64,000 nucleotides of DNA, taken from NCBI GenBank assembly GCA_040389185.1, contig JAZKAJ010000011.1:1033-65032 (forward strand). Reading direction: 5' to 3'. The position numbers and the translations under genes are program-made. Under the pieces are notes generated by a model, which was not told where the DNA came from, did no database searches, and saw nothing but the letters and a program-made list of their open reading frames with translations. Positions 11,070 through 60,584 of the stretch are shown piece by piece; position 1 is the first letter of the stretch, and each line of letters starts with the position of its first letter. This DNA comes from Patescibacteria group bacterium. Lineage in GTDB: Bacteria > Patescibacteriota > Minisyncoccia > Phycocordibacterales > CAIRYW01.

Positions 11070-11264
11070 TCATCCAGTTGGACCGCGAGTACGCTTATCG
11101 AACCTTACAGGTTCAGTACACCTTTTGGTGATTTTGTTTCGTTCCTCACAAAATCAGCTCAAAAGGTTTTCGATTCCAACACGCAAGTGCCCCACACTTG
11201 CTTGGACGCACAAAAATACAAAAACCTCAGACGTTGGACGTCTGAGGTTTTTGTATTTTTGTGC
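11070..11264 (+). repeat. tRNA 3'-half mimic structured element, type-2 copy D (partner tRNA-Lys), ending in a 26-bp perfect hairpin/terminator
   Basis: The conserved block gttggaccgcgagtacgcttatcgaaccttacaggttcagtacaccttttgg is shared with 52770-52823 in the opposite orientation. ggttttcgattccaac matches the tRNA-Lys T-arm and ttggacgcac matches the tRNA-Lys acceptor 3' strand. The hairpin gcacaaaaatacaaaaacctcagacg/cgtctgaggtttttgtatttttgtgc spans 11208-11264. Confidence 0.6.
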
Positions 11265-11388
11265 CCCAACTCAGTCTCGGAATATAGGTAATGAGACCAT
11301 GTAAGGGTTCTTTGAGTGATTTCGATATAGAAAATTTAACCCAGTCGGTCGGGGTTTTGTTTTTTCAAAATGAGACAAATGAGACAGT

Positions 11389-12183
11389 TCAAGACTTTTT
11401 CTTGCGTTTCATTTTCACACGTTTTTTTGCTTCCCTGCGAGCATATCGGTTTTCCAATCTCTTCTTCTCCTCAGCTTCACGCTCTGCCATTTCCTCAGGT
11501 GACACAACTCTCATGTGTTCCATGATTCGATATCCTTTAAGATGTTCGAATGGATCAACAAATCTGTACCAAGGTTCAGAATGATACCAAGTTTCTCCAT
11601 TCCTATCTTCTTTTACCATATACGATTTCACCATTTTCCTTTGCGGTAAGAAATCTTTGTTATCTTTTATTAAAAAGATATGGCAATGAACTCGGCTACC
11701 ATCCATAACCGTTCTTGGTTTGATGATTCCTGCTTCGATCCATTCTTTTAGTTTCTTTTTGTTCACATTAAAATCACTTTCCATGTCATATTCTGAATAC
11801 CGATTGTCTCTATTCTTTGCAATGGAAGGAAGGATTTCTTTTCTATTTATTGCTTTCTGGCATATAGAACATTTGATTCCATATTGGTCATACCAGTTTT
11901 CATTTTCCTGAGTTGAGTTACCGCAGATTGCACAACTGTATCCTCGACTTTCTAATATATACCCTTTAGGAAATTCTCTAAGTTTGTTTTTTCTTCTTCG
12001 ATCTTCTAGTGCAAATTCATAAATTAAGTTTGCATACCTTCCAAGATTAGCAAAAGCTTCCTCAGCTTCATCCCAAGTAACTTCTTTGCCACCTTCTCTC
12101 TCCATAATATTCTTCATCTCCTGAACATGTTCTTCGTGAGACTTACTCATATTATAATTATAACTCCATAATATTTTTTTCAT
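11389..12183 (-). CDS. hypothetical zinc-finger protein with lysine/arginine-rich C-terminal tail
   Basis: 264 aa; CxxC...CxxC (CAICGNS...CSICQK); C-terminus EKKRLENRYARREAKKRVKMKRKKKS. TGAGACAG motifs lie at both ends of the gene. Confidence 0.45.
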   Translation of the reverse strand: MKKILWSYNYNMSKSHEEHVQEMKNIMEREGGKEVTWDEAEEAFANLGRYANLIYEFALEDRRRKNKLREFPKGYILESRGYSCAICGNSTQENENWYDQYGIKCSICQKAINRKEILPSIAKNRDNRYSEYDMESDFNVNKKKLKEWIEAGIIKPRTVMDGSRVHCHIFLIKDNKDFLPQRKMVKSYMVKEDRNGETWYHSEPWYRFVDPFEHLKGYRIMEHMRVVSPEEMAEREAEEKKRLENRYARREAKKRVKMKRKKKS

Positions 12184-12344
12184 AAATGAGACAGTCTATG
12201 TGAGTAGTTTAAATCTGAGCTCGTAAAAATCATCTTATTTCATAAGATGATTTAATTGAATTGAACCTATAAATAAAAAATAATTTTACTTAGTTTGACT
12301 TTGATGTCGGAACAGCTAGTATTACCCCGGAAGCGCTCGAGTGA

Positions 12345-13721
12345 GTGCTAAACTCGCTCCTTGAGAGCAAAACAAACAGAAACACGACTATGATATCTAA
12401 CCTTAGAGGTCAGTCAAAACTGCGTTGCATGCAATGTGGGGCAGTTGTGCCCTTGTATGGAACAGTGCAGTTCACCTGCGGAAAATGCGGTGGATTGTAT
12501 GATGTCGAACATGAGTTCGGTCACATCACAAAAGGAGGACCCGATTATTGGAAAACAATCTTCGACGTTCGCACAAAACCATCGGGCAACGTCCTGTATT
12601 CCTCTGGGGTGTGGCGGTTCCATGAACTCATCATGCCCTCTCTCGATCCACAGGAAATTGTGTCGCTTGGCGAAGGTGTGTTCCAGATACTTTCTGCGGG
12701 CAAAAAGGTTCGTGACTGGGTCGGTGGCAACACCGATTTGTGGATCGTTCCTGAAGGTCTCACTCAAACTGGTTCCTTCAAGGATCACGGTGGCACAGTT
12801 GCCATGAGTGTTGCGAAAGCAATGGGCATCAAAACCATAGCTTGTGCATCCACTGGCGACACATCCGCAATGGCAGCCGCATACGCCGCCGCAGCAGGAT
12901 TGAAGTGTGTTGTTGTCTTGCCTGCGGGTAAGGTCACCAATGTGCAACTCGCTCAACCTGTCGCTCATGGTGCACGAATCATTACGATCCCCGGATCGTT
13001 TGATGACTGCATGCGCGTCGTTCGGGAACTCTGCGAAGCAGGCAGGGTTTTTCCAATCAACAGCATCAATCCGACGCGAATCGAAGGTCATCAAGCAACC
13101 GTCTTCCTTATGGCACAGTTCCTCCAATGGCAACTACCTGATGTGTTTGTGGTTCCTGTCGGTAACGGCAGCAACTCCTCATCCATCGGCAAAGCCATCC
13201 GTCTCCTCAAACAACTCGGTCTCGTCGCAGACAAGGAATGCAAGATTATCGGTGTCCAATCCGACTCTGCAAATCCGTTGGCGACAAGTTGGGAAAGTGT
13301 TCAAAGACTGGGACGGGTTGATATTGAGAAATGGCGCTCGGTCTATCAGCCGCGGAAAGACCTCGGAGAAACAGCTGCTACAGCGGCACGGATCGGAAAT
13401 CCGGTTTCTTGGGCCAAAGTCATGCGCGAAATCTGTGCCTCCGATGGTGCGGTGCTTACAGTGACTGAAGCTGAGCTTCTCGAAGCAACCCGAACACTCG
13501 GATCTTCTGGATTCTCTGGCTGTCCGCAAACTGGGACAGCTCTCGCGGGTCTCCGGCAAGCGATTGCTCGTGGATTCGTTAAACCAGGTGCGACGGTGTC
13601 GTTGGTGTCAACGGCAACCTCACTTAAGTTCCCTGATGTGGCGATGGAGTTTGGGGGTGACTTGATCACAAGTGCAGGGTCTTGCGACACTGAGGATATC
13701 GCGAGTATCATGGGAATCTGA
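12345..13721 (+). CDS. thrC: threonine synthase-like PLP enzyme with N-terminal zinc ribbon; markedly higher GC than surrounding DNA
   Basis: Zn ribbon CMQCG...CGKCG, PLP-lysine motif TGSFKDHGGT, glycine-rich loop VPVGNGSN. Local GC is visibly about 50-55% against roughly 35-40% elsewhere, and several long ORFs on other frames overlap it, as expected for high GC. The start may be the internal ATG at 12390. Confidence 0.7.
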   Translation: MLNSLLESKTNRNTTMISNLRGQSKLRCMQCGAVVPLYGTVQFTCGKCGGLYDVEHEFGHITKGGPDYWKTIFDVRTKPSGNVLYSSGVWRFHELIMPSLDPQEIVSLGEGVFQILSAGKKVRDWVGGNTDLWIVPEGLTQTGSFKDHGGTVAMSVAKAMGIKTIACASTGDTSAMAAAYAAAAGLKCVVVLPAGKVTNVQLAQPVAHGARIITIPGSFDDCMRVVRELCEAGRVFPINSINPTRIEGHQATVFLMAQFLQWQLPDVFVVPVGNGSNSSSIGKAIRLLKQLGLVADKECKIIGVQSDSANPLATSWESVQRLGRVDIEKWRSVYQPRKDLGETAATAARIGNPVSWAKVMREICASDGAVLTVTEAELLEATRTLGSSGFSGCPQTGTALAGLRQAIARGFVKPGATVSLVSTATSLKFPDVAMEFGGDLITSAGSCDTEDIASIMGI

Positions 13722-13742
13722 TGGAGTGCTCTGACGACAATG

Positions 13743-13777
13743 GGGAGGTGGTGCTTACGGGCCCACCTCCTTTTTTA
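13743..13777 (+). terminator. intrinsic terminator
   Basis: ggaggtgg-tgcttacgggc-ccacctcc followed by TTTTTT directly after the thrC-like stop. Confidence 0.6.
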
Positions 13778-14125
13778 TTTAAATTCCTTATCCGCAGTTC
13801 TAAACATAATAACCATCATTATAATAAATGCTACACCGATAGATATTGCAATTCCTTTTTCTGTAGAAGTTGAGACATCAAGTGCAAATTGAAATATAGC
13901 TATAATCATTTGAACGATAGCAAAGAATGCAATGACTTTTGAAAATTTTTTGTTTGATGCATCTAAATCAACCATTGTTTTGTTTGTCCTCAGTGTTGCC
14001 TTTATCTGAAGCTCATTCATCTTCATTTGTTGTTTAGAAAAAGCAATCCCTGTAGAAATTTCTCCAATAGAATCGAGTGCGTCTAATATATCTTTATCTT
14101 CGGGTAAATATTGTTCTTTTTTCAT
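13775..14125 (-). CDS. hypothetical small membrane protein
   Basis: 116-aa ORF with two C-terminal TM helices. Confidence 0.35.
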   Translation of the reverse strand: MKKEQYLPEDKDILDALDSIGEISTGIAFSKQQMKMNELQIKATLRTNKTMVDLDASNKKFSKVIAFFAIVQMIIAIFQFALDVSTSTEKGIAISIGVAFIIMMVIMFRTADKEFK

Positions 14126-14373
14126 AAATTATATTGTAACATTTTGAGCTTTTATGGAAAATTTCAATTTACTTTTTTCTGTCCATAAATACCCTTATTT
14201 CCCAACACATTTTCGTGTGGATAAATTTACGAGATTCCCACAAAACGCATTTTGAATATATTAGAATGATGTTAAGGAAGAGGAGTTGTGAAATTACAAG
14301 AGTGTTAGTTTAAAGAACATTCCTGTAACTTTAGAAGCCTTCCTACAAATTAATAGTTAGTAAAAATAAAAGA

Positions 14374-15720
14374 ATGAAAAAACTTGATGAAAAGTTGGTT
14401 GTTAAGTATGTCCAAATTTCTGAGATTAAGCCCTCAGAATATAATCCACGAAAGTGGGATGCGGAACAGAAGGAATCGCTTAAGCAAAGTCTTACTCAAT
14501 TCGGTATAGTTGATCCACTGGTTTGTAATAGTGCAGAAGGGAGAATGAATATTCTCCTTGGTGGTCACTTCAGATTGGAAGTGTTGAAGGAACTTGAATA
14601 TAAAGAAGTTCCAGTGGTTTACATCAATATCTCAGATATTGAAAAAGAGAAGGAACTCAATATCAGATTAAACAAGAATACGGGAGAATTCGATTTAGAT
14701 CTGTTGGCAGAATTTGATGAGGCACTCCTTTCTAATATTGGATTTGATTCAGAAGAACTCGATACCATCTTCAACAATGATGAGGACGAAGAGGAACAAT
14801 TTGATCTCAAGAAAGAACTAGAGAAACTTAATATCAATGAAATCAAAGTAAAGAAGGGTGACGTATATGAACTCGATGGATCAAGACTTATGTGTGGCGA
14901 CAGCACGATTGAAGAAGATATGCTTTCCCTTATGGGTGAGCATAAGGCAGACATGGTAATGACTGATCCGCCATATATTCTTGATTACCTGCATGGTAAG
15001 ACAAGGCACGGAGAAGCAACAGAAGGGTTTGGATCAAAGAAAAACAGAAGATATCTTGAGACAGATGTTTTGCCTGATAACTTCACAGAACTTTGGATGG
15101 GAAATATACAAAAAATACAGAAAGAAAACTTTCATATTGTTTGCTACGAGAACTGGAAGAATATTCGTACTATCTGGAACGAGATGGAGAAGCATTGGAA
15201 AGTCCGCAATATGATTGTCTGGCATCTTCCTAATCGTGTACAGGGATATTCAGGAAAGTACAAACTCTTTAACAAGTACGATATTGCCATGGTTGGTACG
15301 ACTGAAGACGAAGTGAATCTCAACACTGAAAAGGAGGATGAGATTGTTGATAACGAGTATGAGACAGCACTCTATGCAACATCAGGATCACCACATTGGG
15401 AAAGTTACGGAGCTGGTAAGAAGATTTGTCCAACTGATTTTATTGAGTTTAAAGCCGCGGATGAGAAATCTTCAGGACAAGGAATCATCTTCGGTACAAA
15501 ACCGCTTGAGATCCTTATGCCTTACATAAAGATACTAACAGAGAGGGATGATCTTGTAGTAGAGCCTTTTGGTGGAAGTGGGTCGACATTAATAGCATCC
15601 ATCAAAATGAAAAGAAGATGCTTTCTTATGGAGAAATCTCCAGTCTATGTTGAGGTAATCCTTCGAAGATGGAGAATACAGACTGGTAAGGAGCCGGTAA
15701 AAATTTATGAGAGAGCATAA
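14374..15720 (+). CDS. ParB-like nuclease domain fused to a beta-class N6-adenine/N4-cytosine DNA methyltransferase
   Basis: The N-terminal ParB/Srx-like region (VQISEIKPSEYNPRKWD...GGHFRLEVL) precedes catalytic motif IV DPPY, which in turn precedes SAM motif I FGGSGST. That order (IV before I) marks the beta class. Such fusions are typical of phage or island orphan methyltransferases. Confidence 0.8.
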   Translation: MKKLDEKLVVKYVQISEIKPSEYNPRKWDAEQKESLKQSLTQFGIVDPLVCNSAEGRMNILLGGHFRLEVLKELEYKEVPVVYINISDIEKEKELNIRLNKNTGEFDLDLLAEFDEALLSNIGFDSEELDTIFNNDEDEEEQFDLKKELEKLNINEIKVKKGDVYELDGSRLMCGDSTIEEDMLSLMGEHKADMVMTDPPYILDYLHGKTRHGEATEGFGSKKNRRYLETDVLPDNFTELWMGNIQKIQKENFHIVCYENWKNIRTIWNEMEKHWKVRNMIVWHLPNRVQGYSGKYKLFNKYDIAMVGTTEDEVNLNTEKEDEIVDNEYETALYATSGSPHWESYGAGKKICPTDFIEFKAADEKSSGQGIIFGTKPLEILMPYIKILTERDDLVVEPFGGSGSTLIASIKMKRRCFLMEKSPVYVEVILRRWRIQTGKEPVKIYERA

Positions 15721-16096
15721 AGAAGATAAGATAAGATTTCTTGAGGAACTGCAGAAGATAGGAAATGTATGGACTGCGTGTGGAAGAATTAAGATTCCAA
15801 GATCGACAATATATCGTTGGTTAAAGACTGATCCAGAATTTAATGAATTGGCCCGAAAAGCAATGAAAATCGGTCGAATCAGCCTAAGTGAAATGACAGA
15901 GGGTGTAGTAATTAAGAAAGCTATTGTAGAAAAAGATTTGAAAGCTTCAATGTATATTCTGAGCCACAATCATCCTAGGTATATAAAACGAGAGCCACTG
16001 CCACCTAAAGATGAAAATCAGGCAATGAATTTGGCTGATCTAATTAAGAAGAGTATAAAAAAGGATGGAACGAATGAGGATTCTTTCGGACTGTGA
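15707..16096 (+). CDS. HTH-domain protein (phage terminase small-subunit-like or regulator)
   Basis: 129 aa; helix-turn-helix IPRSTIYRWLKTDPEF; overlaps the methyltransferase stop by 14 nt (translational coupling). Confidence 0.35.
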   Translation: MREHKEDKIRFLEELQKIGNVWTACGRIKIPRSTIYRWLKTDPEFNELARKAMKIGRISLSEMTEGVVIKKAIVEKDLKASMYILSHNHPRYIKREPLPPKDENQAMNLADLIKKSIKKDGTNEDSFGL

Positions 16097-16158
16097 TTAA
16101 TTACAGATCTTTATTTAAAAGAACCAGTAGTTCATACTACTGGTTCTTTTAAATAAAT

Positions 16159-16806
16159 TTACTTCACTATCGAACATCCATTCACAAGCACATTACCAAG
16201 CTTTCCAGAGAGCTCACCTTTAAGAGTTAATCGATCTCCCTTGGATACTGTTGCCAATTGAGTCTCATCAGCTTTTGAGAACATACACTGAACATTCTCA
16301 AAAGAATACTGGCTTCCGTCGGTAAGTGAAATGTATGGAGTATCAACAATGTCTTTGCCAATGGTATCAACAAGGCCTGACACTTCGACAATATTGTTCT
16401 TGTACTTTGCATCAGCAGAAACTTCATTTGCTTTGTAGTCAGCAAGAAGTTTTGTTGCTGTTACTTTGATTGCTGGTTGTTCTGGTACTGGCACAGACAC
16501 ACTTTTATCTGTTACTACTGACGGCATAACATTACTTGATGAAGTTGTACCTATTATCACAAAGAGTACTAAGACAAGAAAGACTTTCAATCCTCGAGAA
16601 AGATTGATATGTAATTTCTCCTTTATTAATTTGTTACTCGGTGGCAATACAATGATTGCGATAAGGAGAAACAAAATTCCTGAGAGAGGCTTAGTAAAAA
16701 TTGTACTTACTGCTGTAAGTAACATGACTACACCAAATACCCAAGAGAATACAGAACCTAGAGTTATGTTTTTAGTCTTAACTGAAGACTGGTTGTTGTT
16801 TTCCAT
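16159..16806 (-). CDS. membrane-anchored OB-fold protein (tRNA_anti-like / BOF-type domain)
   Basis: 215 aa; N-terminal TM, then YKANEVSADAKYKNNIVEVSGLVD...GDRLTLKGELSG typical of OB-fold anticodon-binding-like domains. Confidence 0.4.
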   Translation of the reverse strand: MENNNQSSVKTKNITLGSVFSWVFGVVMLLTAVSTIFTKPLSGILFLLIAIIVLPPSNKLIKEKLHINLSRGLKVFLVLVLFVIIGTTSSSNVMPSVVTDKSVSVPVPEQPAIKVTATKLLADYKANEVSADAKYKNNIVEVSGLVDTIGKDIVDTPYISLTDGSQYSFENVQCMFSKADETQLATVSKGDRLTLKGELSGKLGNVLVNGCSIVK

Positions 16807-17070
16807 TGTAGCGAGTTTTTATAACATGACAGGTAGACAAAAAGCCCTCCGCCATGGCGATGGTCCGAAGACCACCCACATCCGTTTCCAGATATGACTC
16901 GCTACAAGTACCCTGACGAAGGGTTTTTTATCTTGTAGCGAGCTTTTCGACCATATCCTTTAAAACTTTTAAGGGTTTCAAAGGGGTTAGGTCTCTTATT
17001 AAGTTGTACTAAACAATAATACCAAGATTATAGGTATTAGTCAGTACCTTAGCTCGGATTAGGAATTTTA

Positions 17071-17091
17071 GGTAATCGAGTTACCAACAGC
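17071..17091. promoter_or_regulatory. candidate recombinase half-site GGTAA-tcgag-TTACCAACAG (shares an 11-mer with 18505-18515)
   Basis: gttaccaacag at 17080-17090 is identical to 18505-18515; small inverted repeat ggtaa/ttacc. Confidence 0.3.
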
Positions 17092-17478
17092 TTAGAATTG
17101 TGCTTTTTGACCCCAATTACCATCATCCCAGGCGGGTTTATCCGTTCCTGTGATATGAAATTCTCCATCATCCATCATTTCGCCGTAATAGACAGTGCCT
17201 GGTAGCCAGGCGGTTTCTCCAAGAAATTCTGATATAGCTTCTCCAGACTTCTGATAAACATAATTTATAATATTGTCTCCAGAATAATCACGAACATGAG
17301 TGTAAGGCATTACAGGGTTTGGAATTCCCATAAGAAAAAGGGTTGTCTTTTCTTTACCTGTCACTTCTTTTAATTCTGATCGTAGAAGAAACCGCAATCC
17401 TGTTCCAAGATACTCACCAGTACTCAACATATAACTTTTACTTGCAGTTTTAATTTCTGTTTCTTTATTCTCACTCAT
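17092..17478 (-). CDS. hypothetical protein
   Basis: 128-aa ORF; no recognisable motif. Confidence 0.35.
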   Translation of the reverse strand: MSENKETEIKTASKSYMLSTGEYLGTGLRFLLRSELKEVTGKEKTTLFLMGIPNPVMPYTHVRDYSGDNIINYVYQKSGEAISEFLGETAWLPGTVYYGEMMDDGEFHITGTDKPAWDDGNWGQKAQF

Positions 17479-17516
17479 TGTTTAATGATATTTAATATCG
17501 GTTAAATTGATAATGG

Positions 17517-17894
17517 TTATTTTTTAAGCTTCAATATCTGTGCCCAGCCTTTCTCATGAATGTCCTTTGCAAGAATAACTAATCGTCCCGCAAAAAAAGC
17601 AACACCCATACCCAAGACAGATAAACAAAGACCCGAAGCGAATGGATTTGTAAGTAAATTTGATAGACGTGGGTCAAGTTTTTCTAATCCACCATAAGCA
17701 GCAATCAGGGCGATTCCCCAGAATGCACTAAATCCTATATATTCGAATTCACTAAGTTTTTTATCCAAGTTTACTGTTTTCCTGTAAGACCACACAGTTA
17801 TAAAACCTGTGAAGATAATATAGAAGTAAACATATGCGTCATCTGTTGGATTCATATTTTTTAATTTTCTAATAATTATGACCCGTTCCTCCAA
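17517..17894 (-). CDS. hypothetical membrane protein
   Basis: 125 aa, three hydrophobic helices. Confidence 0.35.
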   Translation of the reverse strand: MEERVIIIRKLKNMNPTDDAYVYFYIIFTGFITVWSYRKTVNLDKKLSEFEYIGFSAFWGIALIAAYGGLEKLDPRLSNLLTNPFASGLCLSVLGMGVAFFAGRLVILAKDIHEKGWAQILKLKK

Positions 17895-17918
17895 ATTAAG
17901 GAGGAACGGGTTCTGTCA

Positions 17919-18203
17919 CTATCTCGCTGGAACTAAATCACCACACCAAGCTGTATATTGTAAGACAAGAATATTTGATGTCTTACCTGTACTGTTGGAT
18001 GACGTCTTTGCAAGAATGTGGACCTGCTGACAAGTTGCTGTAGTGTTTAGGGTGTATTCGGCAGTCGGAAGACTGTATCGAGCACCGTTACCTGCAGTGA
18101 TTGTCTTAACGAATCCTGCACGCTGCATTGCAGTATGAAGGATGTTATAATCGTTAGGATAGATAGCGTTGTGCAATTCTACTCTGATAAAGTATGAATT
18201 CAT
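17919..18203 (-). CDS. hypothetical small protein
   Basis: 94 aa (FIRVELHNAIYPNDYNILHTAMQRAGF...); first gene of a three-gene minus-strand block. Confidence 0.35.
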   Translation of the reverse strand: MNSYFIRVELHNAIYPNDYNILHTAMQRAGFVKTITAGNGARYSLPTAEYTLNTTATCQQVHILAKTSSNSTGKTSNILVLQYTAWCGDLVPAR

Positions 18204-18241
18204 TTTGTTTTCTAAGATTGGTTAATAAAATCGACCGTTAA

Positions 18242-18275
18242 CAAAAAGCGATGACCCCTCGGTCATCGCTTTTTG
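18242..18275. terminator. bidirectional intrinsic terminator
   Basis: aagcgatgacc-cctc-ggtcatcgctt flanked by AAAAA and TTTTT. Confidence 0.55.
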
Positions 18276-18483
18276 TATGGAATTTTTTTAGAGTAAATAA
18301 CTACTTATGATTCTATAATTTTAGTGATGATCGAAGGCTGTGAAGTTTGTTGTTTTGTTATGTTATGTTTTTTGCCTTCGAGATTGATGTCTCGTACGAA
18401 TATTGATCTATGTAGTTTTCAATGAACTTAACGATAATATATCACTATTTTTTATTTGCACAAACCGGGTAAAGTTTATATCC

Positions 18484-18515
18484 CTGTTGGTAAATTGGGG
18501 ATAAGTTACCAACAG
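18484..18515. promoter_or_regulatory. 32-bp imperfect palindrome CTGTTGGTAA-N12-GTTACCAACAG, candidate serine-recombinase site
   Basis: Perfect 10-bp inverted arms; lies about 30 nt upstream of the recombinase ORF; 11-mer shared with 17080-17090. Confidence 0.45.
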
Positions 18516-18541
18516 TCCAACCTGGACTCTCAAGAGGGGTT

Positions 18542-19879
18542 GTGTCATTCATTGAGTATATGAGTAGCGCAACAAATGCACCATTAGGAACAACAGCTAA
18601 AATAGTAATACCTGTAAAGGTGAAATACTGTCTTTACGCTAGAAAAAGCACAGAATCGGAAGAAGCTCAGATTCTTTCGATTGATAGCCAAATAAGGGAA
18701 ATGCAACAAATGGCAGACAGGGAGTGTTTGGAGATAGTTGAAATAAAGAGAGAATCACACTCCGCCAAAGAAGCAGGACAACGACCTGTGTTTAATGAGA
18801 TTGTAGAAGAAATTAAACTTGGAAAATTTAATGGAATTCTGACTTGGGCGGCAGATAGAATAAGTCGTAATGCGGGGGATCTTGGAAGAATTGTAGATCT
18901 AATGGATGCTGAGAAGCTTCATGATATTAGAACCTATAGCCAAAGATTCACCAACAATCCCAATGAGAAATTTCTTCTTATGATTCTTGGCTCACAAGCA
19001 AAGCTTGAGAATGACAATAAGGTGTTGAATGTAAAAAGAGGACTTAAAGCACGGTGTGAGATGGGACTCTGGCCTTGTGTACCGCCGACTGGATATTTAA
19101 GAAACAAGAATGTTGATAATAAATGTTTACCTGAAATAGATTCATATAGAGGAGCAATAATTAAGAAATGTTTTGAAAAAATAGCTTATGAAAAATGGTC
19201 AGGTAGAAAAGTATATAAATGGTTAAGAGACGAAGTAAACTTTAAAACAAAGACAGGTAAAATATATACTTTGAGCAATCTATATCTTACGTTACGGAAT
19301 CACTTCTATTACGGCACTTTTGAATATCCAAAAGACAGCGGTCATTGGTATACAGGTAAACATACACCCCTCATAACCAAAGAGTTGTTTGATAAGGTAC
19401 AGGAAGGAATAAGTAATTACAATGATCGAAACGAACACAAGGAATTCGCTTTTACAAAGATAATGTCTTGCGGACTGTGTGGATCTGGGATTACTGCTGA
19501 TGAGAAATTTAAGAAACTGGCGAATGGCAGTGTTCAGAGATATGTGTATTATGGTTGCACAAGATTTAATGATCGTGATTGTAAATCAGGATGGATCAAT
19601 GAAGTTGATCTTATAGAACAATTAGCTAATCTAATGGGCAATATTGATCTCGATGAAATTGGCATGAAGGAAAAGATAAAAGAAGAAATAGAACGACATA
19701 AGAAGTTTAGTTTGGGGCTACTAGGCGAAAAAGCTAAAGTAATTAAGACAACTGATATTGATATTCGAAATTATGCCAAATATGTTCTCCGCGACGGTGC
19801 CTCATGGGAGAAAAGAGAGTTATTGGGATGCTTAAGAAGTAAGATTTCCCTAAATGCAAAAAAGATAGAGATTCACTAA
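18542..19879 (+). CDS. large serine recombinase (resolvase catalytic domain plus recombinase domain plus zinc ribbon)
   Basis: Catalytic-serine motif CLYARKSTESEE; GDLGRIVDLMD and LLMILGSQAKLENDN regions; C-terminal Cys cluster CGLCGSG...YYGC. The true start is probably the ATG at 18560. Confidence 0.85.
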   Translation: MSFIEYMSSATNAPLGTTAKIVIPVKVKYCLYARKSTESEEAQILSIDSQIREMQQMADRECLEIVEIKRESHSAKEAGQRPVFNEIVEEIKLGKFNGILTWAADRISRNAGDLGRIVDLMDAEKLHDIRTYSQRFTNNPNEKFLLMILGSQAKLENDNKVLNVKRGLKARCEMGLWPCVPPTGYLRNKNVDNKCLPEIDSYRGAIIKKCFEKIAYEKWSGRKVYKWLRDEVNFKTKTGKIYTLSNLYLTLRNHFYYGTFEYPKDSGHWYTGKHTPLITKELFDKVQEGISNYNDRNEHKEFAFTKIMSCGLCGSGITADEKFKKLANGSVQRYVYYGCTRFNDRDCKSGWINEVDLIEQLANLMGNIDLDEIGMKEKIKEEIERHKKFSLGLLGEKAKVIKTTDIDIRNYAKYVLRDGASWEKRELLGCLRSKISLNAKKIEIH

Positions 19880-19888
19880 GCCGGTAAG

Positions 19889-20128
19889 CTATTCCATTGC
19901 ATTCTTTTTGATTCTATACCATTCTCTTACATCAAGTTGTAAATAATCTTTACAGTCCAAAAGAATTTTAGATAACTCTTTATGTCTATACATATCTTCT
20001 AGCGGTGGCGCTGGTCGAATATCTCGTCGAATATTGGAATCCCTATCATAAACTTGAAACGCATAATTTATTGTGGTATCAATTTTTTTATACTCTTCAT
20101 AAAGCTTTAAGTATTCTTTTTCTTCCAT
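19889..20128 (-). CDS. hypothetical small protein (third gene of the nuclease operon)
   Basis: 79 aa; 17-nt gap from the upstream gene on the same strand. Confidence 0.4.
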   Translation of the reverse strand: MEEKEYLKLYEEYKKIDTTINYAFQVYDRDSNIRRDIRPAPPLEDMYRHKELSKILLDCKDYLQLDVREWYRIKKNAME

Positions 20129-20145
20129 GCAATTTATGTTATTGA

Positions 20146-20463
20146 TTATTTAATCGAATAAGCGAACTGAAGCATGCCGTTTGTTTGCGGATAAAAATCA
20201 AATAAAGTCTCAAAATTATCTTGATTTTCAGATGTCTGGAATTTGACATACTTTAAATTGGTCTTTTCTTCAAACCACTTTTTTAAAACTTCATCAACCT
20301 TTATATCTTTTGTTTGCTTCTTGAAGAGTCTGGATAGAAATACTATGTCAGCACAAACAATAATTTTACATAAAATACTACCATTATCGTCTTCAATAAA
20401 ACTCCTTTGCCAAAAAACATCAGCATGCCAATCCTCTTTAATATTTCCTAGAATTAATTTCAC
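20146..20463 (-). CDS. hypothetical small protein (second gene of the nuclease operon)
   Basis: 105 aa; its start overlaps the upstream gene's stop by 4 nt (ATGA), implying translational coupling. Confidence 0.4.
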   Translation of the reverse strand: MKLILGNIKEDWHADVFWQRSFIEDDNGSILCKIIVCADIVFLSRLFKKQTKDIKVDEVLKKWFEEKTNLKYVKFQTSENQDNFETLFDFYPQTNGMLQFAYSIK

Positions 20464-21683
20464 AGTTTTGATCTTAAATTTTTAAGGTTTTCGAGTAATT
20501 CATCATAGAGAATGAAGTTTATATTTTTCAATGATGATCCAAGCTTCCTGAAATCAGCTGACTCTTTTTTATTTTTGAACTGCTTGCTTGTACCAGCAAT
20601 AATATATCCTCGCGGTCTTACCACCTGTATATCAATACCTTTTTTATTTTTTACAGCACGAATATATGCGTCAGAATTATGAACGATCTCATCAGTGTAA
20701 TTTTCTATTTGAGCAATAGCCATTGAAACATCCGGCTTCCAATAATAATTATCATGATCTTTATCAAAACTAAGCAATGAAACATCATGTTTCTTTATTT
20801 CAAAAACATCAACAAATCCATATACATCCACTAATACGAAGTCGGGGTAGCTAACACTAATACTTACATTTTGTTTTTCAATTGCAGTGACATAATTGGC
20901 CATAAATCGAAACACCTTTTCACTAAGAAATTTTTGCCAATCATTTTCGGAAATGCTTTTTTTAGCCAAATTTGCCTCAAACTCTTTAATAACTTCATCA
21001 AGATAAATTCTATCTGTAGTAGTTTTAGCGCTTTTAATTAGTGTAGCGCGCCCATTTTTTATTCCTCGTTTTTTACCTTTAAGAGAACCTTCAAATATTT
21101 TCGGGAAGAAGTTATTAAGCGACTCAAGATCCTCCTCATTTAGCCTTTGAGCTACTTTCTTACGTCGTAAGAGAGCAGCAATCTCACCTGCCTTATACTC
21201 ATCAAAATCGTCAGTAGAAATCTTTATGTCTTTTGGAAACTTAGTACTTAAAAAAGATGCTACAGCACTTCGTAACTCATTATTACTGTCTTCGTTAATA
21301 CGACCAAGTTTAATAAGAAGATTTTTTATGTCTAAAAGCGGCAGAACAACAGAAACCTTATGCTTTCCTTTATGAACCTTCTTTGTCTTCTTGGAAACAA
21401 TAAGTTCAAGAACTTTGGATCCCGCTAAATGCTCCTTCAGAGCAGTAAGGAGGAAAATTCCTTTTTTTCCAAAACCATAACCTTTTTTATTAAGATAAAG
21501 TCCTGAAGGAAGACCTTGATAACCTTCGAGAGTAATACTTGATACTTGTTTTGATTTTGCAGGTTGTAAATAGTAGATGGTCTTATCTGATTTAGGATAT
21601 ACCTCATATACACAAAAGTCAGGTTTATCAGACGCATAATGACGTTCTGGAATTTCAATCTTTTTATCTTTTTTTGCAACCAT
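20460..21683 (-). CDS. PD-(D/E)xK nuclease-domain protein, Shedu (DUF4263)-like or RecB/Cas4-like C-terminal domain, lysine-rich N-terminal region
   Basis: 407 aa. The C-terminal region shows the ordered motifs YPDFVLVD, then DVFEIKK ((D/E)xK), then AIAQIENY (QxxxY), as in RecB-family and Shedu-type nucleases. The N-terminal 280 aa are K-rich with no recognised domain. The Shedu assignment is made from motifs only. Confidence 0.5.
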   Translation of the reverse strand: MVAKKDKKIEIPERHYASDKPDFCVYEVYPKSDKTIYYLQPAKSKQVSSITLEGYQGLPSGLYLNKKGYGFGKKGIFLLTALKEHLAGSKVLELIVSKKTKKVHKGKHKVSVVLPLLDIKNLLIKLGRINEDSNNELRSAVASFLSTKFPKDIKISTDDFDEYKAGEIAALLRRKKVAQRLNEEDLESLNNFFPKIFEGSLKGKKRGIKNGRATLIKSAKTTTDRIYLDEVIKEFEANLAKKSISENDWQKFLSEKVFRFMANYVTAIEKQNVSISVSYPDFVLVDVYGFVDVFEIKKHDVSLLSFDKDHDNYYWKPDVSMAIAQIENYTDEIVHNSDAYIRAVKNKKGIDIQVVRPRGYIIAGTSKQFKNKKESADFRKLGSSLKNINFILYDELLENLKNLRSKL

Positions 21684-21790
21684 ATATAAGCTACTTTATA
21701 CCATAAAAATAGCCCAATTTCATTGGTTAAAATAACTTAAACTATAGACTATGTTGGACTTGACCCAACTTAGTAGGTCTCACATGTGGG

Positions 21791-21863
21791 TGCGTCCAGT
21801 TGGAATCGAACCAACGACCGTCTCCTTAAAAGGGAGCTGCTCTACCGACTGAGCTATGGACGC
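21791..21863 (-). tRNA. tRNA-Lys (anticodon UUU)
   Basis: Cloverleaf: acceptor GCGTCCA/TGGACGC; D-arm GCTC-AGTCGGTA-GAGC; anticodon loop CTTTTAA; T-arm GTTGG-TTCGATT-CCAAC. CCA is not encoded. Confidence 0.85.
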
Positions 21864-29225: not shown

Positions 29226-29446
29226 TACAATTAAAAAAAACGTACCGGTTCGTACGTTTTTTTTAATTGTATCCCTTCGAAAAAGTGCTGAACGCACTTT
29301 TGTAGAGGAATCGAACGCCGGAATATATTTTTCGGAGTTGAGAAAAATACGAGGTGGTGACCAGACAAATTCTGCAGGTAGCAGAATTTAGTCGAGGTCG
29401 ATACTCCTCTAGTAGAGGAATCGGGGTACTGAACCTGTAAGAATCG
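29226..29446 (-). repeat. tRNA 3'-half mimic structured element, type-1 copy C (partner tRNA-Arg-GCG), minus-strand sense
   Basis: A 29-bp perfect hairpin (29217-29280) embeds the tRNA 3' end. Read on the minus strand, the element carries sense copies of the T-arm (ggcgttcgattcctct) and the acceptor 3' strand (cgaagggata). The small hairpin aagtgcgttcagcactt lies between those two copies. The type-1 core is cgactaaattctgc-tacct-gcagaatttgtctggtcacca. A partial type-2 block lies at 29422-29446. Confidence 0.6.
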
Positions 29447-29479
29447 ATATTTCATTTTTATTTTTGCTATAATATCTAG

Positions 29480-30040
29480 ATGAACGCTAATGCATTGGAA
29501 CAAGAACCAAAATTCACCATTGAAACACCTAAGGAAGGTGATGAGACAGAGATTGGGAAAATGCATTTACAATCATGGCACGAATCATATACTGATCCAA
29601 AAAGAGGGGTAACAAAAGAAGTGATTGATGAATTTAGAAGTGATACCACGACTGAGAATGGTGACGAGAGAAGAAGAGGTTTTTTCAGAGAAGCGGCAGA
29701 ACATCCAGACAAGATTCTTTACAAAATAGTTAGAAATAGTAAGGGGGAGATTGTGGGCTTTCTTCATTGTACCAAAGGAGAAGAGTTTAATGACCTCGAT
29801 GCAATTTATCTTTTGAATGAAGCAAAAGGGGAAGGTGTTGGAGGAAAACTGATGGAAGAGTTCCTAGCTTGGTCTGACAAGAAAAAACCTTCACATCTTG
29901 AAGTCTTTTCTGCGAATGAAACGGCATTGGGTTTTTATGAAAGATATGGCTTCGCGAAAACTGACAAAGCTCCGAAATTGTATAAAGACAGACTTGAGTA
30001 TATTGAAATGATGCGCCCGGCAGAAGAACAGCAAGATTGA
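29480..30040 (+). CDS. GNAT-family N-acetyltransferase
   Basis: 186 aa; acetyl-CoA binding region GEGVGGKLMEEF and ERYGFAKTD. Confidence 0.65.
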   Translation: MNANALEQEPKFTIETPKEGDETEIGKMHLQSWHESYTDPKRGVTKEVIDEFRSDTTTENGDERRRGFFREAAEHPDKILYKIVRNSKGEIVGFLHCTKGEEFNDLDAIYLLNEAKGEGVGGKLMEEFLAWSDKKKPSHLEVFSANETALGFYERYGFAKTDKAPKLYKDRLEYIEMMRPAEEQQD

Positions 30041-44278: not shown

Positions 44279-44477
44279 TCCTTGAACCATTGAGCCTCCG
44301 CGAAAAATTTTTTCGTGGAGGCTCTGTCATTTTTATATTATTAAATCTAAGATATTTATATCTTGCTAATGTAACTTGGATCACGGTTCAAGTTCGCGAG
44401 ATATCTCACTTTGAAATATCGCCAGAATACTAATGCTTTACAAATCACGGTAGAGTGCGATTAAAGATAGAGAGAGC

Positions 44478-44605
44478 TCGTGTACTGAAACTGCAGAATG
44501 AGTAGTTAGGATATGTGCCTGCACCGGCTTCGCCGATGGCCTGGCGGACGGTATCTGCGTGAGAGAGGGGGGACGGTGAAGATGAGTTTGTATTTGGGCA
44601 TAGAT
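44478..44605 (-). pseudogene. frameshifted 5' fragment of a paralogue of the 47108-47431 gene
   Basis: About 88% nucleotide identity to 47307-47433 (start codon and first about 42 codons, MPKYKL(I/V)FTVP...). An extra C in the CCCCCC run shifts the frame. The fragment has GC-enriched third positions and is truncated at 44478. Confidence 0.6.
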
Positions 44606-45999: not shown

Positions 46000-46040
46000 G
46001 TAAGGATTATATCAAAATATAGAAATACTGCTAAATATTT

Positions 46041-46266
46041 TGGGTGAGGCGAGAGTTTCGACCTCGACTAAATTTTTCTACCCGAAAAATTTGTCTGGTC
46101 ACCAGCTCACACCGCCGATGAGCTCATCGGCGACTACGCTTCGCTTCGTGTGTTCCGCTGTTCGAATCTCGCCTGTTTTTCGGAGAAAAACCAAGTTGCT
46201 TCGCAACTTGCCTCCGCCAATAAGAAAAAACACCTGCATCTGCACGGTGTTTTTTCTTATTGGCGG
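46041..46266 (+). repeat. tRNA 3'-half mimic structured element, type-1 copy A (partner tRNA-Ser)
   Basis: Its 5' end tgggtgaggcgagagtttcgac is antisense-like to the tRNA-Ser 3' end. The core is cgactaaatttttc-taccc-gaaaaatttgtctggtcaccagctcac, followed by the perfect hairpin cgccgatgagctcatcggcg. Sense T-arm/acceptor copy ccgctgttcgaatctcgcc and acceptor end cctccgcca follow. A 21-bp perfect hairpin closes the element at 46214-46266. Confidence 0.6.
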
Positions 46267-46534
46267 GCCACTGGAGTTAAGTGATAGAGGACTCAAGTGT
46301 CATAAGGATATTCTAGGATTTTTACAGAGAATATTCGAGGCACTTGAGTCTAAGGTGGACTTTCTATAAAATGAGACAACTGAGACAGTTTTGAGAGGTT
46401 TGAAATACGCGCATTGTAAAATTGAAAATTCGTGGTATTGTTTTCGCGTTAGTCTAACCGTTCGACAGTATCTAAAGAACTGTCTCATGGTAAGACAGTT
46501 CTTCGATATCTAACGAATCAACCTCTCGTAACCT

Positions 46535-47038
46535 ATGAAAACACCGATTACCGCCGGCCGCGTCTTTTCGCAGCTCTCTTATACAACCATCATCAAAGTC
46601 ATTGCTGCACTTACTGTGATGCACAATTCTGAGAAAGAGTGCAGGGGTGGAATCCTTGCTATTCTGGTGCAAGGACCAGAAGGAAGCACCCTCGAATCTC
46701 GCGAACTCGGAGCCCCGGGAGAAAAGGCATTTGATTCTGCCTATTTCGCCCACGAAAAAATCCGTCGCCTCGCCACTCGTCGCCTGACTGCGGGAAGCGA
46801 AGGGGAATATGCATCTTCGCAAAGTGCAGATCCTGAGAAGGGTCAGTACGGCGGCTGCGTCGTGTCGTGGCACGGGAAGTATGAAATCTTTATCTCATTC
46901 TCGGGAGCACCCGCTGTCGTGGATGAGGTCGTCACTTATGTCGTCGCTGAAGCCCTCGGGTTCACGGTTTCGACTGAGTATCAGAACGATCTTCTTCCGC
47001 AAGCTCGCGCACTACTCGAGCGTTGTCGCAGGCCATGA
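46535..47038 (+). CDS. hypothetical protein in a second high-GC segment
   Basis: 167-aa ORF; visibly high GC; preceded by (T)GAGACAG motifs at 46372-46392 and 46485-46505. Confidence 0.4.
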   Translation: MKTPITAGRVFSQLSYTTIIKVIAALTVMHNSEKECRGGILAILVQGPEGSTLESRELGAPGEKAFDSAYFAHEKIRRLATRRLTAGSEGEYASSQSADPEKGQYGGCVVSWHGKYEIFISFSGAPAVVDEVVTYVVAEALGFTVSTEYQNDLLPQARALLERCRRP

Positions 47039-47107
47039 AATAAGGCAAGTGTCGTTGATATCCCACGTGGAGTCCTGAGCAATCGGGACTCCATTTTTAT
47101 TTTTTTA

Positions 47108-47431
47108 TTAGAATTTTCTTGTTTCGAGAGGGAATAAATCGTATGCAATTTCTTCGTATGGGTGACTTGCTCGGAGTGCTTTTAATACTTCATCAACTTT
47201 ATCTGCATCAATCTGACATTCAATTCTTTCTTCCTCCACCTCTTCAAATTTTCCGACTTCACCGATTGCTGGTGTTGCACCTGTTTCAGGCTTGAATCTT
47301 CCTATGCCTCGTGTACTGAAACTGCAGAATGAATAGTTGGGATATGTGCCTGCACCAGCTTTGCCGATAGCTTGGCGAACAGTGTCTGCGTGGGAGAGGG
47401 GAACTGTGAAGACGAGTTTGTATTTGGGCAT
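47108..47431 (-). CDS. conserved hypothetical small protein (alpha/beta, about 107 aa)
   Basis: MPKYKLVFTVPLSHADTVRQAIGKAGAG...HPYEEIAYDLFPLE; a frameshifted paralogous fragment lies at 44478-44605. Confidence 0.45.
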   Translation of the reverse strand: MPKYKLVFTVPLSHADTVRQAIGKAGAGTYPNYSFCSFSTRGIGRFKPETGATPAIGEVGKFEEVEEERIECQIDADKVDEVLKALRASHPYEEIAYDLFPLETRKF

Positions 47432-47435
47432 AGGG

Positions 47436-48467
47436 TTATTTTACCACTCTTTTAGATCTTAAGGGTTTGAGTTCAGGGAACAAGTTCAAGTTAAAAATTT
47501 TATTCAATAATAGATTCCTTGTTATTTCATCCATTTTAAGCATGAGACTTAATAATGCTACTGAATTCTCGCGCCACTCCTCACTCGTCCTTGACCAGTC
47601 CCAAACAATCTCTCCTTCATCCTGGATGATGTTTGATGATTTTGGAATCAGTGCCTCGTGCACGGTTTTGTGTCTTATTTTTTGCCTTATTTCCCAAATT
47701 ACTTTTAAGTATTCTTCTACCCGTTCAGTATCTTTGATTATTTCTGAAAGGCGATGCTCGATCCACTCCTTTGATGTTGTTTTACTATGAGAATGAATTT
47801 TTCCATGAACACTACATTCAACTATTCCAGGACATTTAGGTGCTGTTCCTATTATTGATTCCGTTATAGAGAATAGAACCAAGATGCGCAGAAAGGATGA
47901 ATTTCTAATAGTTCTTTCGGTGGTAATCCTTGTATTTTCTTTACTATTAAAATAAGCCTTAATTAAGGATTTGTTTTCTCTAGACTGGTCTAGATATTTT
48001 TTATATAAATCCGCGTATCTTAAAATATGTGGGTAATTATTTGGGAAATATATTTTATTTGATATGTCAGAATAATCTAAAAGATAATTACACTCACCTT
48101 CGGGTATCATCTTATCCGTATCAAAATTTGTACTTTCGTACCATTCCAGAGAAATATAATCATTAAAAATTATGTTATGAAATATTACCCATTCGTTGAT
48201 TGTGTTTTGACTACATTCACTAAATTCAATATTCATTGAGTCCCAATACATCGTCCCAAATCCAACCTCTATCTTAACTCGGGTTGCGGGAGAGATTGTT
48301 AACCCGTTAATAGTAACTTCTTTGTTTGGGGCATGTTGAGTTGGTAGTGTAAATTTCACGAGTCTAATTATATATCTACATATATAATTGTCGATAAATG
48401 AGGAGGCGAGAGTTTCGATCGTTACACGATCAGTACCCCGATTGGATAATTTGTTTCGATACCTCAC
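47436..48467 (-). CDS. hypothetical protein with C-terminal Rx4H (HEPN-like) motif
   Basis: 343 aa with IRQKIRHKTVHEA near the C-terminus. The 5' end of the longest ORF overlaps repeat element E (48400-48467), so the true start may be downstream. Confidence 0.35.
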   Translation of the reverse strand: MRYRNKLSNRGTDRVTIETLASSFIDNYICRYIIRLVKFTLPTQHAPNKEVTINGLTISPATRVKIEVGFGTMYWDSMNIEFSECSQNTINEWVIFHNIIFNDYISLEWYESTNFDTDKMIPEGECNYLLDYSDISNKIYFPNNYPHILRYADLYKKYLDQSRENKSLIKAYFNSKENTRITTERTIRNSSFLRILVLFSITESIIGTAPKCPGIVECSVHGKIHSHSKTTSKEWIEHRLSEIIKDTERVEEYLKVIWEIRQKIRHKTVHEALIPKSSNIIQDEGEIVWDWSRTSEEWRENSVALLSLMLKMDEITRNLLLNKIFNLNLFPELKPLRSKRVVK

Positions 48468-48661: not shown

Positions 48662-48721
48662 AATATTTGGCTATGTTAGCAGAAAAAGCTGGAATTCACA
48701 AATTGGGGTATACTATTCTAT

Positions 48722-60577: not shown

Positions 60578-60584
60578 TATATAG

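Follow-up and report, generated by a model that had tools for sequence, protein, structure and literature searches.

Why do two tRNA-associated loci of one genome fragment carry nearly the same hairpin-forming block in opposite orientation, and is the copy at 11.07 kb a scar left by the island beside it? The question was raised by a 64,000-nucleotide stretch of contig JAZKAJ010000011.1 from a Patescibacteria group bacterium (assembly GCA_040389185.1), the whole of which is referred to here as the window. A first-pass annotation, made from the sequence alone, had described the block in two copies, here called D and F, as the second (type-2) variant of a tRNA-associated repeat, and this description was supported. 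The block proved to be part of a hairpin-rich unit of about 135 bp (130-150 bp) located on the 3' flank of tRNA genes, whose two arms are copies of the end of the neighbouring gene. We read the unit as a gene-less, non-autonomous miniature integrative DNA element that enters at the T-loop of tRNA genes, resembling a transposable element of the miniature inverted-repeat type (MITE) or a cis-mobilizable element (CIME); this is the reading we prefer, at a little below an even chance.

The repeated block in copies D and F

A 52-nt block (GTTGGACCGCGAGTACGCTTATCGAWCCTTACAGGWTCAGTACACCTTTTGG) was present at 11077-11128 on the plus strand and at 52768-52819 on the minus strand; the near identity and opposite orientation described earlier were borne out, with coordinates displaced by about 3 nt. 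A second block of 20 nt (CTCAAAAGGTTTTCGATTCC) was exact at 11158-11177 (+) and 52718-52737 (-). Zero matches were expected in shuffled sequences for the first block and by chance for the second, and a chance origin of both was rejected on this basis. The sole two differences between D and F within the 52-nt block constitute a compensated change in a 5-bp hairpin (GAACC/GGTTC in D vs. GATCC/GGATC in F). Each copy has its own hairpin between the two blocks and a second hairpin after them, and reading both copies confirmed the proposed succession of variable hairpin, conserved block and differing tail. The tail of copy D (TTCGATTCCAAC, a hairpin, TTGGACGCAC) corresponds to tRNA-Lys (TTCGATTCCAACTGGACGCA) and that of copy F (TTCGATTCCTGG, a hairpin, TCGGGGGCA) to tRNA-Arg(UCU) (TTCGATTCCTCGCGGGGGCA), TTGGACGCAC and TCGGGGGCA being copies of the respective tRNA 3' ends, as had been suspected. 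The expected relation of the 5' side of D to the antisense of the tRNA-Lys 3' end was also found: TCCAGTTGGA is followed by a 14-nt insert (CCGCGAGTACGCTT) and by ATCGAACC, and without the insert 18 of 18 bases are identical to the tRNA-Lys antisense.

The repeat was wider in the window than initially noted. A third type-2 copy, unit S (48400-48532, +), had been overlooked; it was 74% identical to F. Repeat pairs also recovered the block fragment previously attributed to the type-1 copy C, at 29419-29449. Repeat finding together with reading of the tRNA flanks indicated that all five tRNAs of the window carry a unit, and each unit converges on its tRNA, with a palindromic terminator common to both; in some cases the palindrome arms are perfect over 27-32 nt and extend into the end of the tRNA. 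The type-1 units C, X and V present the same layout of arm, hairpin Pd and terminator as type 2, with a different core (TCGACTAAATT..CTACC.G..AATTTGTCT..CACCAGCTC).

Distribution of the family and association with tRNA genes

The family was sampled through a 25-nt core motif (TCGAWNNTTACANNWTCAGTACMCC), which matched at least 120 loci in a species-representative genome collection; 127 copies were among the listed matches. Every named record belonged to Patescibacteria, the lineages among the listed matches being Saccharibacteria, Parcubacteria/Paceibacterota, Nomurabacteria, Taylorbacteria, Kaiserbacteria and Minisyncoccia. The family extends across the phylum. The core motif had no match in 2.9 million viral contigs, and a phage origin was rejected for this reason. 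When a tRNA was sought within 350 nt downstream of each listed copy, 89 of the 127 had one, all 89 in convergent orientation, with 31 anticodons represented. Most of the remaining copies were cut by locus ends or showed, as in D, a truncated tRNA end after the terminator. About 58% of the tRNAs in the sampled loci carried a unit, a share biased by the choice of these loci through the motif. In other species, arm, core, tail and terminator lay directly against tRNA-Lys(UUU) (L097 and L113; sampled loci are cited by number).

A third core type (TTCGGTCACGAGTTACTAAG...CTAAGTACTCTCGACCCCG) was found with tRNA-matched arms at L050, L053, L060, L026 and L083, downstream of tRNA-Arg(GCG), tRNA-Lys, tRNA-His and tRNA-Val. 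The arms being of the same tRNA-matched kind, the units therefore form a superfamily with interchangeable cores. The full-text literature searched contained no description of these units, and the family is apparently undescribed so far.

Architecture of the unit

On the element strand, the unit starts with the complement of the discriminator and acceptor 3' strand and then that of the T-stem 3' strand, followed by an optional 14-nt mini-hairpin (CCGCGAGTACGCTT and covarying variants such as CCATGAGTACATGT and CTGTGAGTACACTT). The antisense of the T-loop then runs into hairpin Pa, with the invariant loop TTACA, and is followed by a conserved AGTAC(A/C) and by helix Pb (CCTTTTGG...CTCAAAAGG or CCCGATTGG...CTCAATCGGG), which surrounds the variable hairpin Pc. 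After two pyrimidines come the T-loop (TTCGANT), the T-stem 3' strand, AC and hairpin Pd, and the unit ends with T, the acceptor 3' strand plus discriminator, the palindromic bidirectional terminator and the convergent tRNA. All type-1 and type-2 copies read had Pd at this point; its stem base was commonly, not universally, GNAAG...CTTNC, and its loops were of the CCCA or AAGCAGT kind. The antisense 5' arm repeats the last 13-21 nt of the tRNA gene in direct orientation and the tail is an inverted (sense) copy; arms and terminator are able to form a continuous duplex that resembles the end of a tRNA gene.

The 14-nt insert of D occurred at the equivalent position in 13 other loci beside other tRNAs, and with a type-1 core in L129. 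The mini-hairpin with a GUAC loop (CGCGAGTACGC) was movable, lying in the 5' arm in some copies and at the Pc apex in others (L055, L096, L097 and L113). Its loop could pair with the conserved AGUAC junction.

Origin of the arms

Each arm was compared by local alignment with the last 24 nt of its own tRNA at the 89 loci, with tRNAs of other anticodons as control. Mean scores were 15.7 for the 5' arm and 13.9 for the tail against the own tRNA, vs. 6.8 and 8.1, respectively, against the others; the matches of the tails to tRNAs were thus better than chance also in this larger sample. At 38 positions where the acceptor or T stem of the partner tRNA contains a non-Watson-Crick pair (G-U or mismatch), the 5' arm complemented the 3' strand 37 times and copied the 5' strand once. 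Therefore, the 5' arm directly repeats, as DNA, the end of the tRNA gene and does not mimic the tRNA helix, and each of the two arms is a DNA copy of that end and not an "acceptor-like" RNA feature. The possibility of a tRNA minihelix mimic, chargeable like its neighbour, was weakened by this disregard of tRNA G-U pairs. By eye, the 5' arm has one C after the discriminator and no complement of CCA; a retroelement primer-binding site or a copy of mature tRNA was rejected on these grounds, the arm being a copy of the gene.

In a per-position comparison at 71 loci, both arms equalled the tRNA at 703 positions, the tail alone differed at 126, the 5' arm alone at 78 and both at 16. Pairing was retained at five of the 16 positions at which both arms differed, in keeping with the chance rate of 1 in 3, and arm-to-arm pairing showed no sign of selection independent of the tRNA sequence. 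The direct repeat is anchored at the T-loop and mostly ends 1-3 nt past the tRNA end. Its length was 20-24 nt in 35 of the 89 copies and ranged overall from about 10 to 111 nt, with shorter values in truncated arms and 30-111 nt in tandem units. A second terminator, formed by a hairpin plus a T-tract, lay directly before the 5' arm in 15 of 60 copies, compared with 7 of 158 control positions; in these copies, the arm plus the flank to its left resembles a tRNA end that was displaced along with its former terminator. The 5' arm of F is Arg-like in its acceptor part and Lys-like in its T-stem part, and may record a transition to a new tRNA or gene conversion from a D-like copy.

Empty sites, tandem units and exchange of cores

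The same tRNA species carried a type-1, type-2 or type-3 core in different genomes; type 2 was found at tRNA-Lys in the window, L097 and L113. The 3' half of tRNA-Lys was identical in four metagenome contigs. Three of them were empty (L126-L128); the fourth, L129, contained a complete arm, the 14-nt mini-hairpin and a type-1 core. In the syntenic locus L122 (RuvA-S20-tRNA-Arg(GCG) ... tRNA-Ser(UGA)-RuvX), both tRNAs lacked a unit. This locus was found among the homologues of the gene upstream of D, the other homologues lying in unrelated contexts that gave no synteny for D itself.

Tandem units were present in L102, L106 and L107; L014, L026 and L062 contained double cores. Nesting was also seen in the window, where X lies outside S at tRNA-Ser and a type-2 stump lies outside C at tRNA-Arg(GCG). 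In this order the unit adjacent to the tRNA is the newer one and the outer unit the older; the stump at 29419-29449 looks like the remnant of an older unit that would have been pushed outward. Between X and S, ATTGGCGG and GAGGAGGCGAGA, separated from 46269 to 48399, are close to the tRNA-Ser end when rejoined, and this old end appears to have been split by a 2.1-kb insertion. At the tRNA-Tyr loci L096 and L115 the terminator is near-identical and the T-stem of the tRNA differs; both arms follow the T-stem difference while Pd is wholly different, and the units are therefore mosaic.

These observations bear on the idea that the unit is an immobile, cis-acting DNA module of the host, namely an elaborate bidirectional terminator, or an insulator, behind tRNA genes. 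It would pass on by vertical inheritance and be lost now and then, and template switching or gene conversion would extend its palindromes and homogenise them to the tRNA gene. Such a module would agree with perfect palindromes that include the tRNA end, with stems of Watson-Crick pairs only, with arms that follow the T-stem change between L096 and L115, with a unit at all five tRNAs of the window and with the lack of a linked mobility gene. We nevertheless consider it quite improbable, given the unrelated core types at the same tRNA species, the mostly empty sites at identical tRNA-Lys ends, the tandem and nested units of different types, and the mosaic modules (Pd swapped between L096 and L115, and the mini-hairpin joined to type-1 and type-2 cores alike); moreover, ordinary terminators serve at the empty sites.

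Covariation and the question of an RNA

Alignment of the copies revealed the covariation that the first-pass annotation had recommended looking for. In a formal analysis of 21 copies, 96% of the cells of Pa and Pb were paired, vs. 72.7% in shuffles, and the covariation score was 0.517, a value that none of 500 shuffles reached, compared with 0.104 in shuffles. For the one Pa pair left free by the search pattern, the 117 copies had CG (52), AT (32), GC (23) or TA (7), and only three had a non-Watson-Crick pair. Watson-Crick pairs made up 425 of 436 pairs in Pd and 536 of 577 in Pc, about 97% over all stems, one-sided changes of the G-U type being almost absent. The single-stranded motifs TTACA and TCAGTAC were invariant. 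Compared with shuffled sequence, both D (z = -10.8) and F (z = -5.4) gave far more stable folds.

Strand tests gave conflicting results. The reverse strand folded better in 40 of 47 copies and had more G-U pairs (108 vs. 55). Counts of G-T vs. A-C pairs were 4 vs. 6 in Pd and 8 vs. 21 in Pc; Pc favoured the reverse strand, and the top pair of Pb pointed to the element strand. A positioned -10 box upstream was found in 22% of the copies vs. 15% in controls, which is no signal, and a scan for consensus promoters detected none near D. Copy F contains an internal match (CTTACA-18-GATAAT), but a -10-like hexamer at promoter spacing occurred in only 21 of 117 copies; a promoter belonging to the unit was rejected, there being no positioned upstream box and no conservation of the internal match. 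The neighbouring gene was divergent in 33 cases and co-directional in 22, without strong preference, so that a 3' untranslated region (UTR) element of the upstream gene was rejected as a general rule. Rfam 15, searched at the gathering score over the whole window and at E-value thresholds over D, X and S, had no family at any of the units D, F, S and X; below threshold, terminator-type hits alone were seen in the vicinity of D, S and X.

Taken as a structured non-coding RNA gene, or as a processed 3' UTR or trailer element, the unit would have a closing helix built from acceptor and T-stem sequence of the neighbouring tRNA and would take part in tRNA biology, for instance by acting on tRNA-processing enzymes as decoy or substrate, or by pairing in antisense with the tRNA 3' end. 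The strong covariation of Pa and Pb, the invariant single-stranded motifs, the fold stability and the strong terminator that always follows all speak for an RNA, as do the G-U pairs that often form the uppermost pair of Pb on the element strand, the capacity of the GUAC-loop module to pair with the AGUAC junction and the core that, by eye, is apparently conserved between L009 and L029. We regard it as somewhat unlikely, however, considering that no Rfam family matched, that no positioned -10 box was found and the internal hexamer was limited to 21 of 117 copies, that a quarter of the full copies are enclosed by terminators on both sides and that the strand is not assignable. In addition, the arms ignore the G-U pairs of tRNAs without compensatory evolution of their own, and the element is dispensable, since a tRNA-Lys with an identical 3' half, tRNA-Ser(UGA) and tRNA-Arg(GCG) occur without it in relatives. 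A group I intron was also rejected, the units being outside intact tRNAs and too short. Group I introns in the tRNAs of Patescibacteria are located inside the gene, at position 35/36 of the anticodon loop (PMC13011429).

Copy D and the neighbouring island

The terminator of D ends in ...TTTTTGTGC at 11264, where intact loci continue into the tRNA as ...GTGCGTCCAGTTGG. Its right arm finishes in GTGC, all that remains of the original end of tRNA-Lys, and GTGC is found both there (11261-11264) and at the far end of the island, at tRNA-Lys (21790-21793). The island junction is located at 11264/11265, beyond the terminator of D. Since this junction follows the terminator, and since the same architecture stands beside intact tRNA-Lys genes, D is read as an older unit that flanked tRNA-Lys and was orphaned by later insertion of the island at the tRNA-Lys 3' end. 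Comparable orphans, with 4-9 nt of tRNA end after the terminator, were present in L011, L017, L041 and L103. An exact search of metagenomes for the tail plus terminator of an island-free allele of D yielded no match.

That copy D is instead a decayed attL-type duplicate of tRNA-Lys, produced by integration of the island at 11.07-21.86 kb, as had been put forward, now seems hardly credible. It would account for the 18 of 18 antisense bases of the 5' part and for its direct orientation with respect to the tRNA-Lys at the far end. Nevertheless, the same arm, insert and core lie next to intact tRNAs without an island in dozens of species, the insert is a conserved module of the family (13 other loci, and L129), the island junction is 190 nt further to the right, after the terminator, and F carries the block beside an uninterrupted tRNA. 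The island encodes, moreover, a large serine recombinase, and to our knowledge these enzymes do not make long direct repeats. The 5' arm of D is no att scar left by this island: D marks the left edge of the 10.5-kb inserted segment, as the first-pass annotation proposed, but it was not made by it.

An 11-nt direct repeat, CCCAACT(C/T)AGT, was observed at the left junction (11265-11275) and again at 21764-21774, 16 nt inside the right end.

Proposed DNA element and mechanism

The whole of the evidence favours a DNA-level element because no Rfam family matched, no promoter was found, the stems are of Watson-Crick type, the strand tests conflict, no neighbour family is enriched and there is no strong preference in the orientation of neighbouring genes. 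The hairpins may matter as single-stranded DNA or may persist through palindrome copying. The architecture itself was observed, as were the strict link with convergent tRNAs, the arms as copies of gene ends, the empty and occupied sites at tRNAs that seem equivalent (by synteny or by an identical tRNA-Lys 3' half), the tandem and nested units and the core swaps.

In the mechanism that we propose, the unit would integrate at the T-loop of a tRNA gene and bring a replacement T-stem/acceptor end and terminator, the former tRNA end staying behind with its old flank as the 5' arm. The active form would be single-stranded and folded, the inverted arm being paired to the tRNA-end copy so that the double-stranded target is mimicked, by analogy with attP of the CTX phage and attC of integrons. 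Single-stranded DNA could be supplied through natural transformation, and joining might be carried out by a host enzyme or by homologous recombination after transformation. Natural competence is shown for Saccharibacteria, and com genes are conserved throughout the candidate phyla radiation (PMC10633639). Copying or gene conversion would keep the arms matched to the tRNA. Copy D, finally, would have lost its tRNA neighbour when the 10.5-kb island, with its serine recombinase and defence genes, inserted at 11264/11265.

Several points weigh against such an element. Neither recombination nor an excised or circular form was observed, no insertion event was seen at strain level, and the model leaves unexplained how a unit could obtain the arms of a new tRNA without that tRNA being broken first. 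Clustering of 1,060 neighbouring ORFs (open reading frames) within 8 kb of 120 loci showed no enriched recombinase or transposase family. The commonest neighbour family was IF-2 (16 of 120 loci), and the frequent neighbours look like housekeeping proteins from our reading of their sequences. Likewise, no recombinase was found near F, S, C, V or X and no transposase among the window ORFs examined, and the unit has no room for an ORF. Three of the six copies of the window (D, F and V) start at most 10 nt from the stop codon of an upstream co-directional gene and would be part of 3' UTR transcripts. In 31 of 79 copies the uppermost Pb pair reads G-T on the element strand, which suits an RNA. Finally, in the apparently orthologous tRNA-Val copies L009 and L029, the 5' half of the core is identical while the flanks differ more, and Pd shows a compensating change, both as judged by eye; this pattern fits a function in place.

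A bolder possibility, which we put forward as speculative and on balance unlikely, is that the units represent a new kind of mobile DNA, or its RNA, programmed by copying. The attachment site would replicate, as a folded single strand, the final ~20 bp of whichever tRNA gene lies next to it; with arms rewritten locally, one core could colonise any tRNA gene and spread among naturally competent Patescibacteria with host enzymes alone. In an RNA form, the units would be guide-like RNAs, each with a 13-21-nt antisense to one tRNA 3' end.

Genomes of Patescibacteria are streamlined, with a size of about 1 Mb. If the DNA reading is true, these genomes tolerate, at many of their tRNA genes, tiny elements that rebuild the tRNA end they interrupt, and the units would represent a new class of tRNA-targeted insertion without a dedicated recombinase. 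They would serve as markers of tRNA-linked genome dynamics and of island boundaries in metagenome-assembled genomes (MAGs), and would call for caution in annotation, as they create partial tRNA copies, spurious ORFs and RNA-like covariation. They could also provide a compact integration cassette for organisms that are now transformable. If the units are RNAs instead, they would constitute a large unannotated RNA family tied to individual tRNAs.

Features of the window and neighbouring genes

The coordinates of the units, their parts, partner tRNAs and the genes of the island are collected in Table 1.

Table 1. Units, tRNA genes and island features in the window.
Feature	Position	Strand	Description	Associated tRNA
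Unit D	11073-11211	+	Type-2 core	tRNA-Lys, 10.5 kb away
D 5' arm, TCCAGTTGGA	11073-11082	+	Antisense of T-stem 3' strand plus 5 nt of acceptor 3' strand; truncated distally	tRNA-Lys
D mini-hairpin, CCGCGAGTACGCTT	11083-11096	+	14 nt; GCG/CGC stem, GUAC-containing loop; between T-stem and T-loop antisense
D T-loop antisense and Pa	11097-11120	+	ATCGAA into Pa (GAACC-TTACA-GGTTC), then AGTACA
D helix Pb, CCTTTTGG/CTCAAAAGG	11121-11166	+	Encloses Pc (11129-11157)
D T-loop/T-stem copy, TTCGATTCCAAC	11169-11180	+	Sense copy of T-loop and T-stem 3' strand	tRNA-Lys
D hairpin Pd	11183-11201	+	GCAAGTG-CCCCA-CACTTGC; between T-stem copy and acceptor copy
D acceptor copy, TGGACGCAC	11203-11211	+	Sense copy of acceptor 3' strand, discriminator and one more base	tRNA-Lys
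D terminator	11208-11264		Perfect palindrome, 27-nt arms (100% complementary), 3-nt loop; read as bidirectional intrinsic terminator
Unit F	52684-52828	-	Type-2 core; mini-hairpin and core as in D, own Pc and Pd	tRNA-Arg(UCU), convergent
F arms			5' arm GTGCTCCCGGTTGGA, 11/15 bases matching the antisense; tail CGGGGGCA	tRNA-Arg(UCU)
Unit S	48400-48532	+	Type-2 sub-type CCCGATTGG...CTCAATCGGG, without mini-hairpin	tRNA-Ser(UGA), convergent
S arms			GAGGAGGCGAGA and TTCGAATCTCGC, hairpin, CTCCTCCGCCC; match the tRNA	tRNA-Ser(UGA)
Unit C	about 29270-29450	-	Type-1 core; type-2 fragment on outer side	tRNA-Arg(GCG)
Truncated 5' half of type-2 core, TATCGATTCTTACAGGTTCAGTACCCCGATT	29419-29449	-	Distal to C	Beside tRNA-Arg(GCG)
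Unit V	about 60580-60730	+	Type-1 core	tRNA-Val(UAC)
Unit X	46040-46215	+	Type-1 core, Ser-like tail	No adjacent tRNA
tRNA-Lys(UUU)	21791-21863	-	Original partner of D
tRNA-Arg(UCU)	52498-52570	+	Partner of F
tRNA-Ser(UGA)	48573-48662	-	Partner of S
Island	11265-21789		~10.5 kb between D and tRNA-Lys
PALP enzyme	12345-13721		In island
ParB-N/N6-N4 DNA methylase	14374-15720		In island
tRNA_anti-like OB-fold protein	16159-16806	-	In island
LOOT RNA (Rfam RF03000)	16859-16993	-	Full-length; 76.4 bits vs. gathering score of 46.4
Large serine recombinase	18542-19879		In island
Shedu SduA	20460-21683		In island

The LOOT RNA starts 53 nt upstream of the gene for the tRNA_anti-like OB-fold protein. 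A 24-nt motif, AAAATGAGACAA(A/C)TGAGACAGTT, was present at 11366-11389 and 46367-46390, about 100 nt inside the left ends of the segments that part D and X from their tRNAs; these ends otherwise align poorly. On either side of X there is a direct repeat of about 127 nt (44477-44603 and 47308-47433, 89-92% identity), which apparently spans the starts of two small minus-strand genes, would-be paralogues, located downstream of a 425-aa PP2C-like ORF and a 343-aa ORF.

Two ORFs run through units, one (29231-29566, -, 111 aa) through unit C and the other (60495-60851, -, 118 aa) through unit V and tRNA-Val. In locus L121, a 43-aa gene called directly after the queried gene may be an example of a spurious call. 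The units are a likely source of spurious gene calls in MAG annotation.

Comparison with known systems

Genomic islands integrated at tRNA 3' ends by tyrosine integrases, and CIMEs derived from this kind of element, share with the units a direct repeat of the tRNA end, from the T-loop onwards, that flanks the insert and leaves the tRNA intact; they also form tandem "accretion" arrays, and their presence varies among tRNAs that look equivalent. In contrast, the units measure about 135 bp, have no integrase in or near them, and carry a third, inverted copy of the tRNA end together with a conserved multi-hairpin core; furthermore, one family of units covers at least 31 anticodons, instead of one tRNA per integrase lineage.

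With attP(+) of the CTX phage, used by XerCD, and with attC of integrons, the units have in common two inverted, target-like sequences, parted by a spacer, that could fold into a duplex mimic, and stems that covary and stay Watson-Crick. Tandem arrays beside an intact target would fit this folded-strand mode of recombination, by analogy. The units differ in that no dif-like or R'/R'' consensus (attC GTTRRRY) is general to them, the GTTGGAC of D and F being the T-stem of tRNA-Lys, at which other copies differ, and in that they target tRNA genes, with arms whose sequence depends on the tRNA.

REP/BIME, ERIC, Correia, BOX and RUP repeats and MITEs are, like the units, short, gene-less, hairpin-forming, intergenic, mosaic and present in many copies, often overlapping terminators. 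These repeats have ends specific to the element, target duplications that are short and fixed or absent, and no tie to a single class of genes, whereas the ends of the unit copy the neighbouring tRNA gene, its position is fixed at the tRNA 3' end and the repeat ranges from about 10 to 111 nt. No transposase of a parent insertion sequence, as expected for a MITE, was present among the window ORFs examined or in the neighbourhood clusters.

Finally, tRNA-like RNAs (the tRNA-like domain of transfer-messenger RNA (tmRNA), the bacterial Y-RNA-like YrlA and viral tRNA-like structures) have, as the unit does, a closing helix with acceptor and T-stem sequence, a T-loop and a discriminator. The helix of the unit is, in contrast, the Watson-Crick complement of the 3' strand and not the tRNA's own pairs; many copies exist per genome, each matched to its neighbouring tRNA, and neither promoter nor Rfam model was found for them. 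The unit thus departs in at least one defining feature from each of the four known systems compared.

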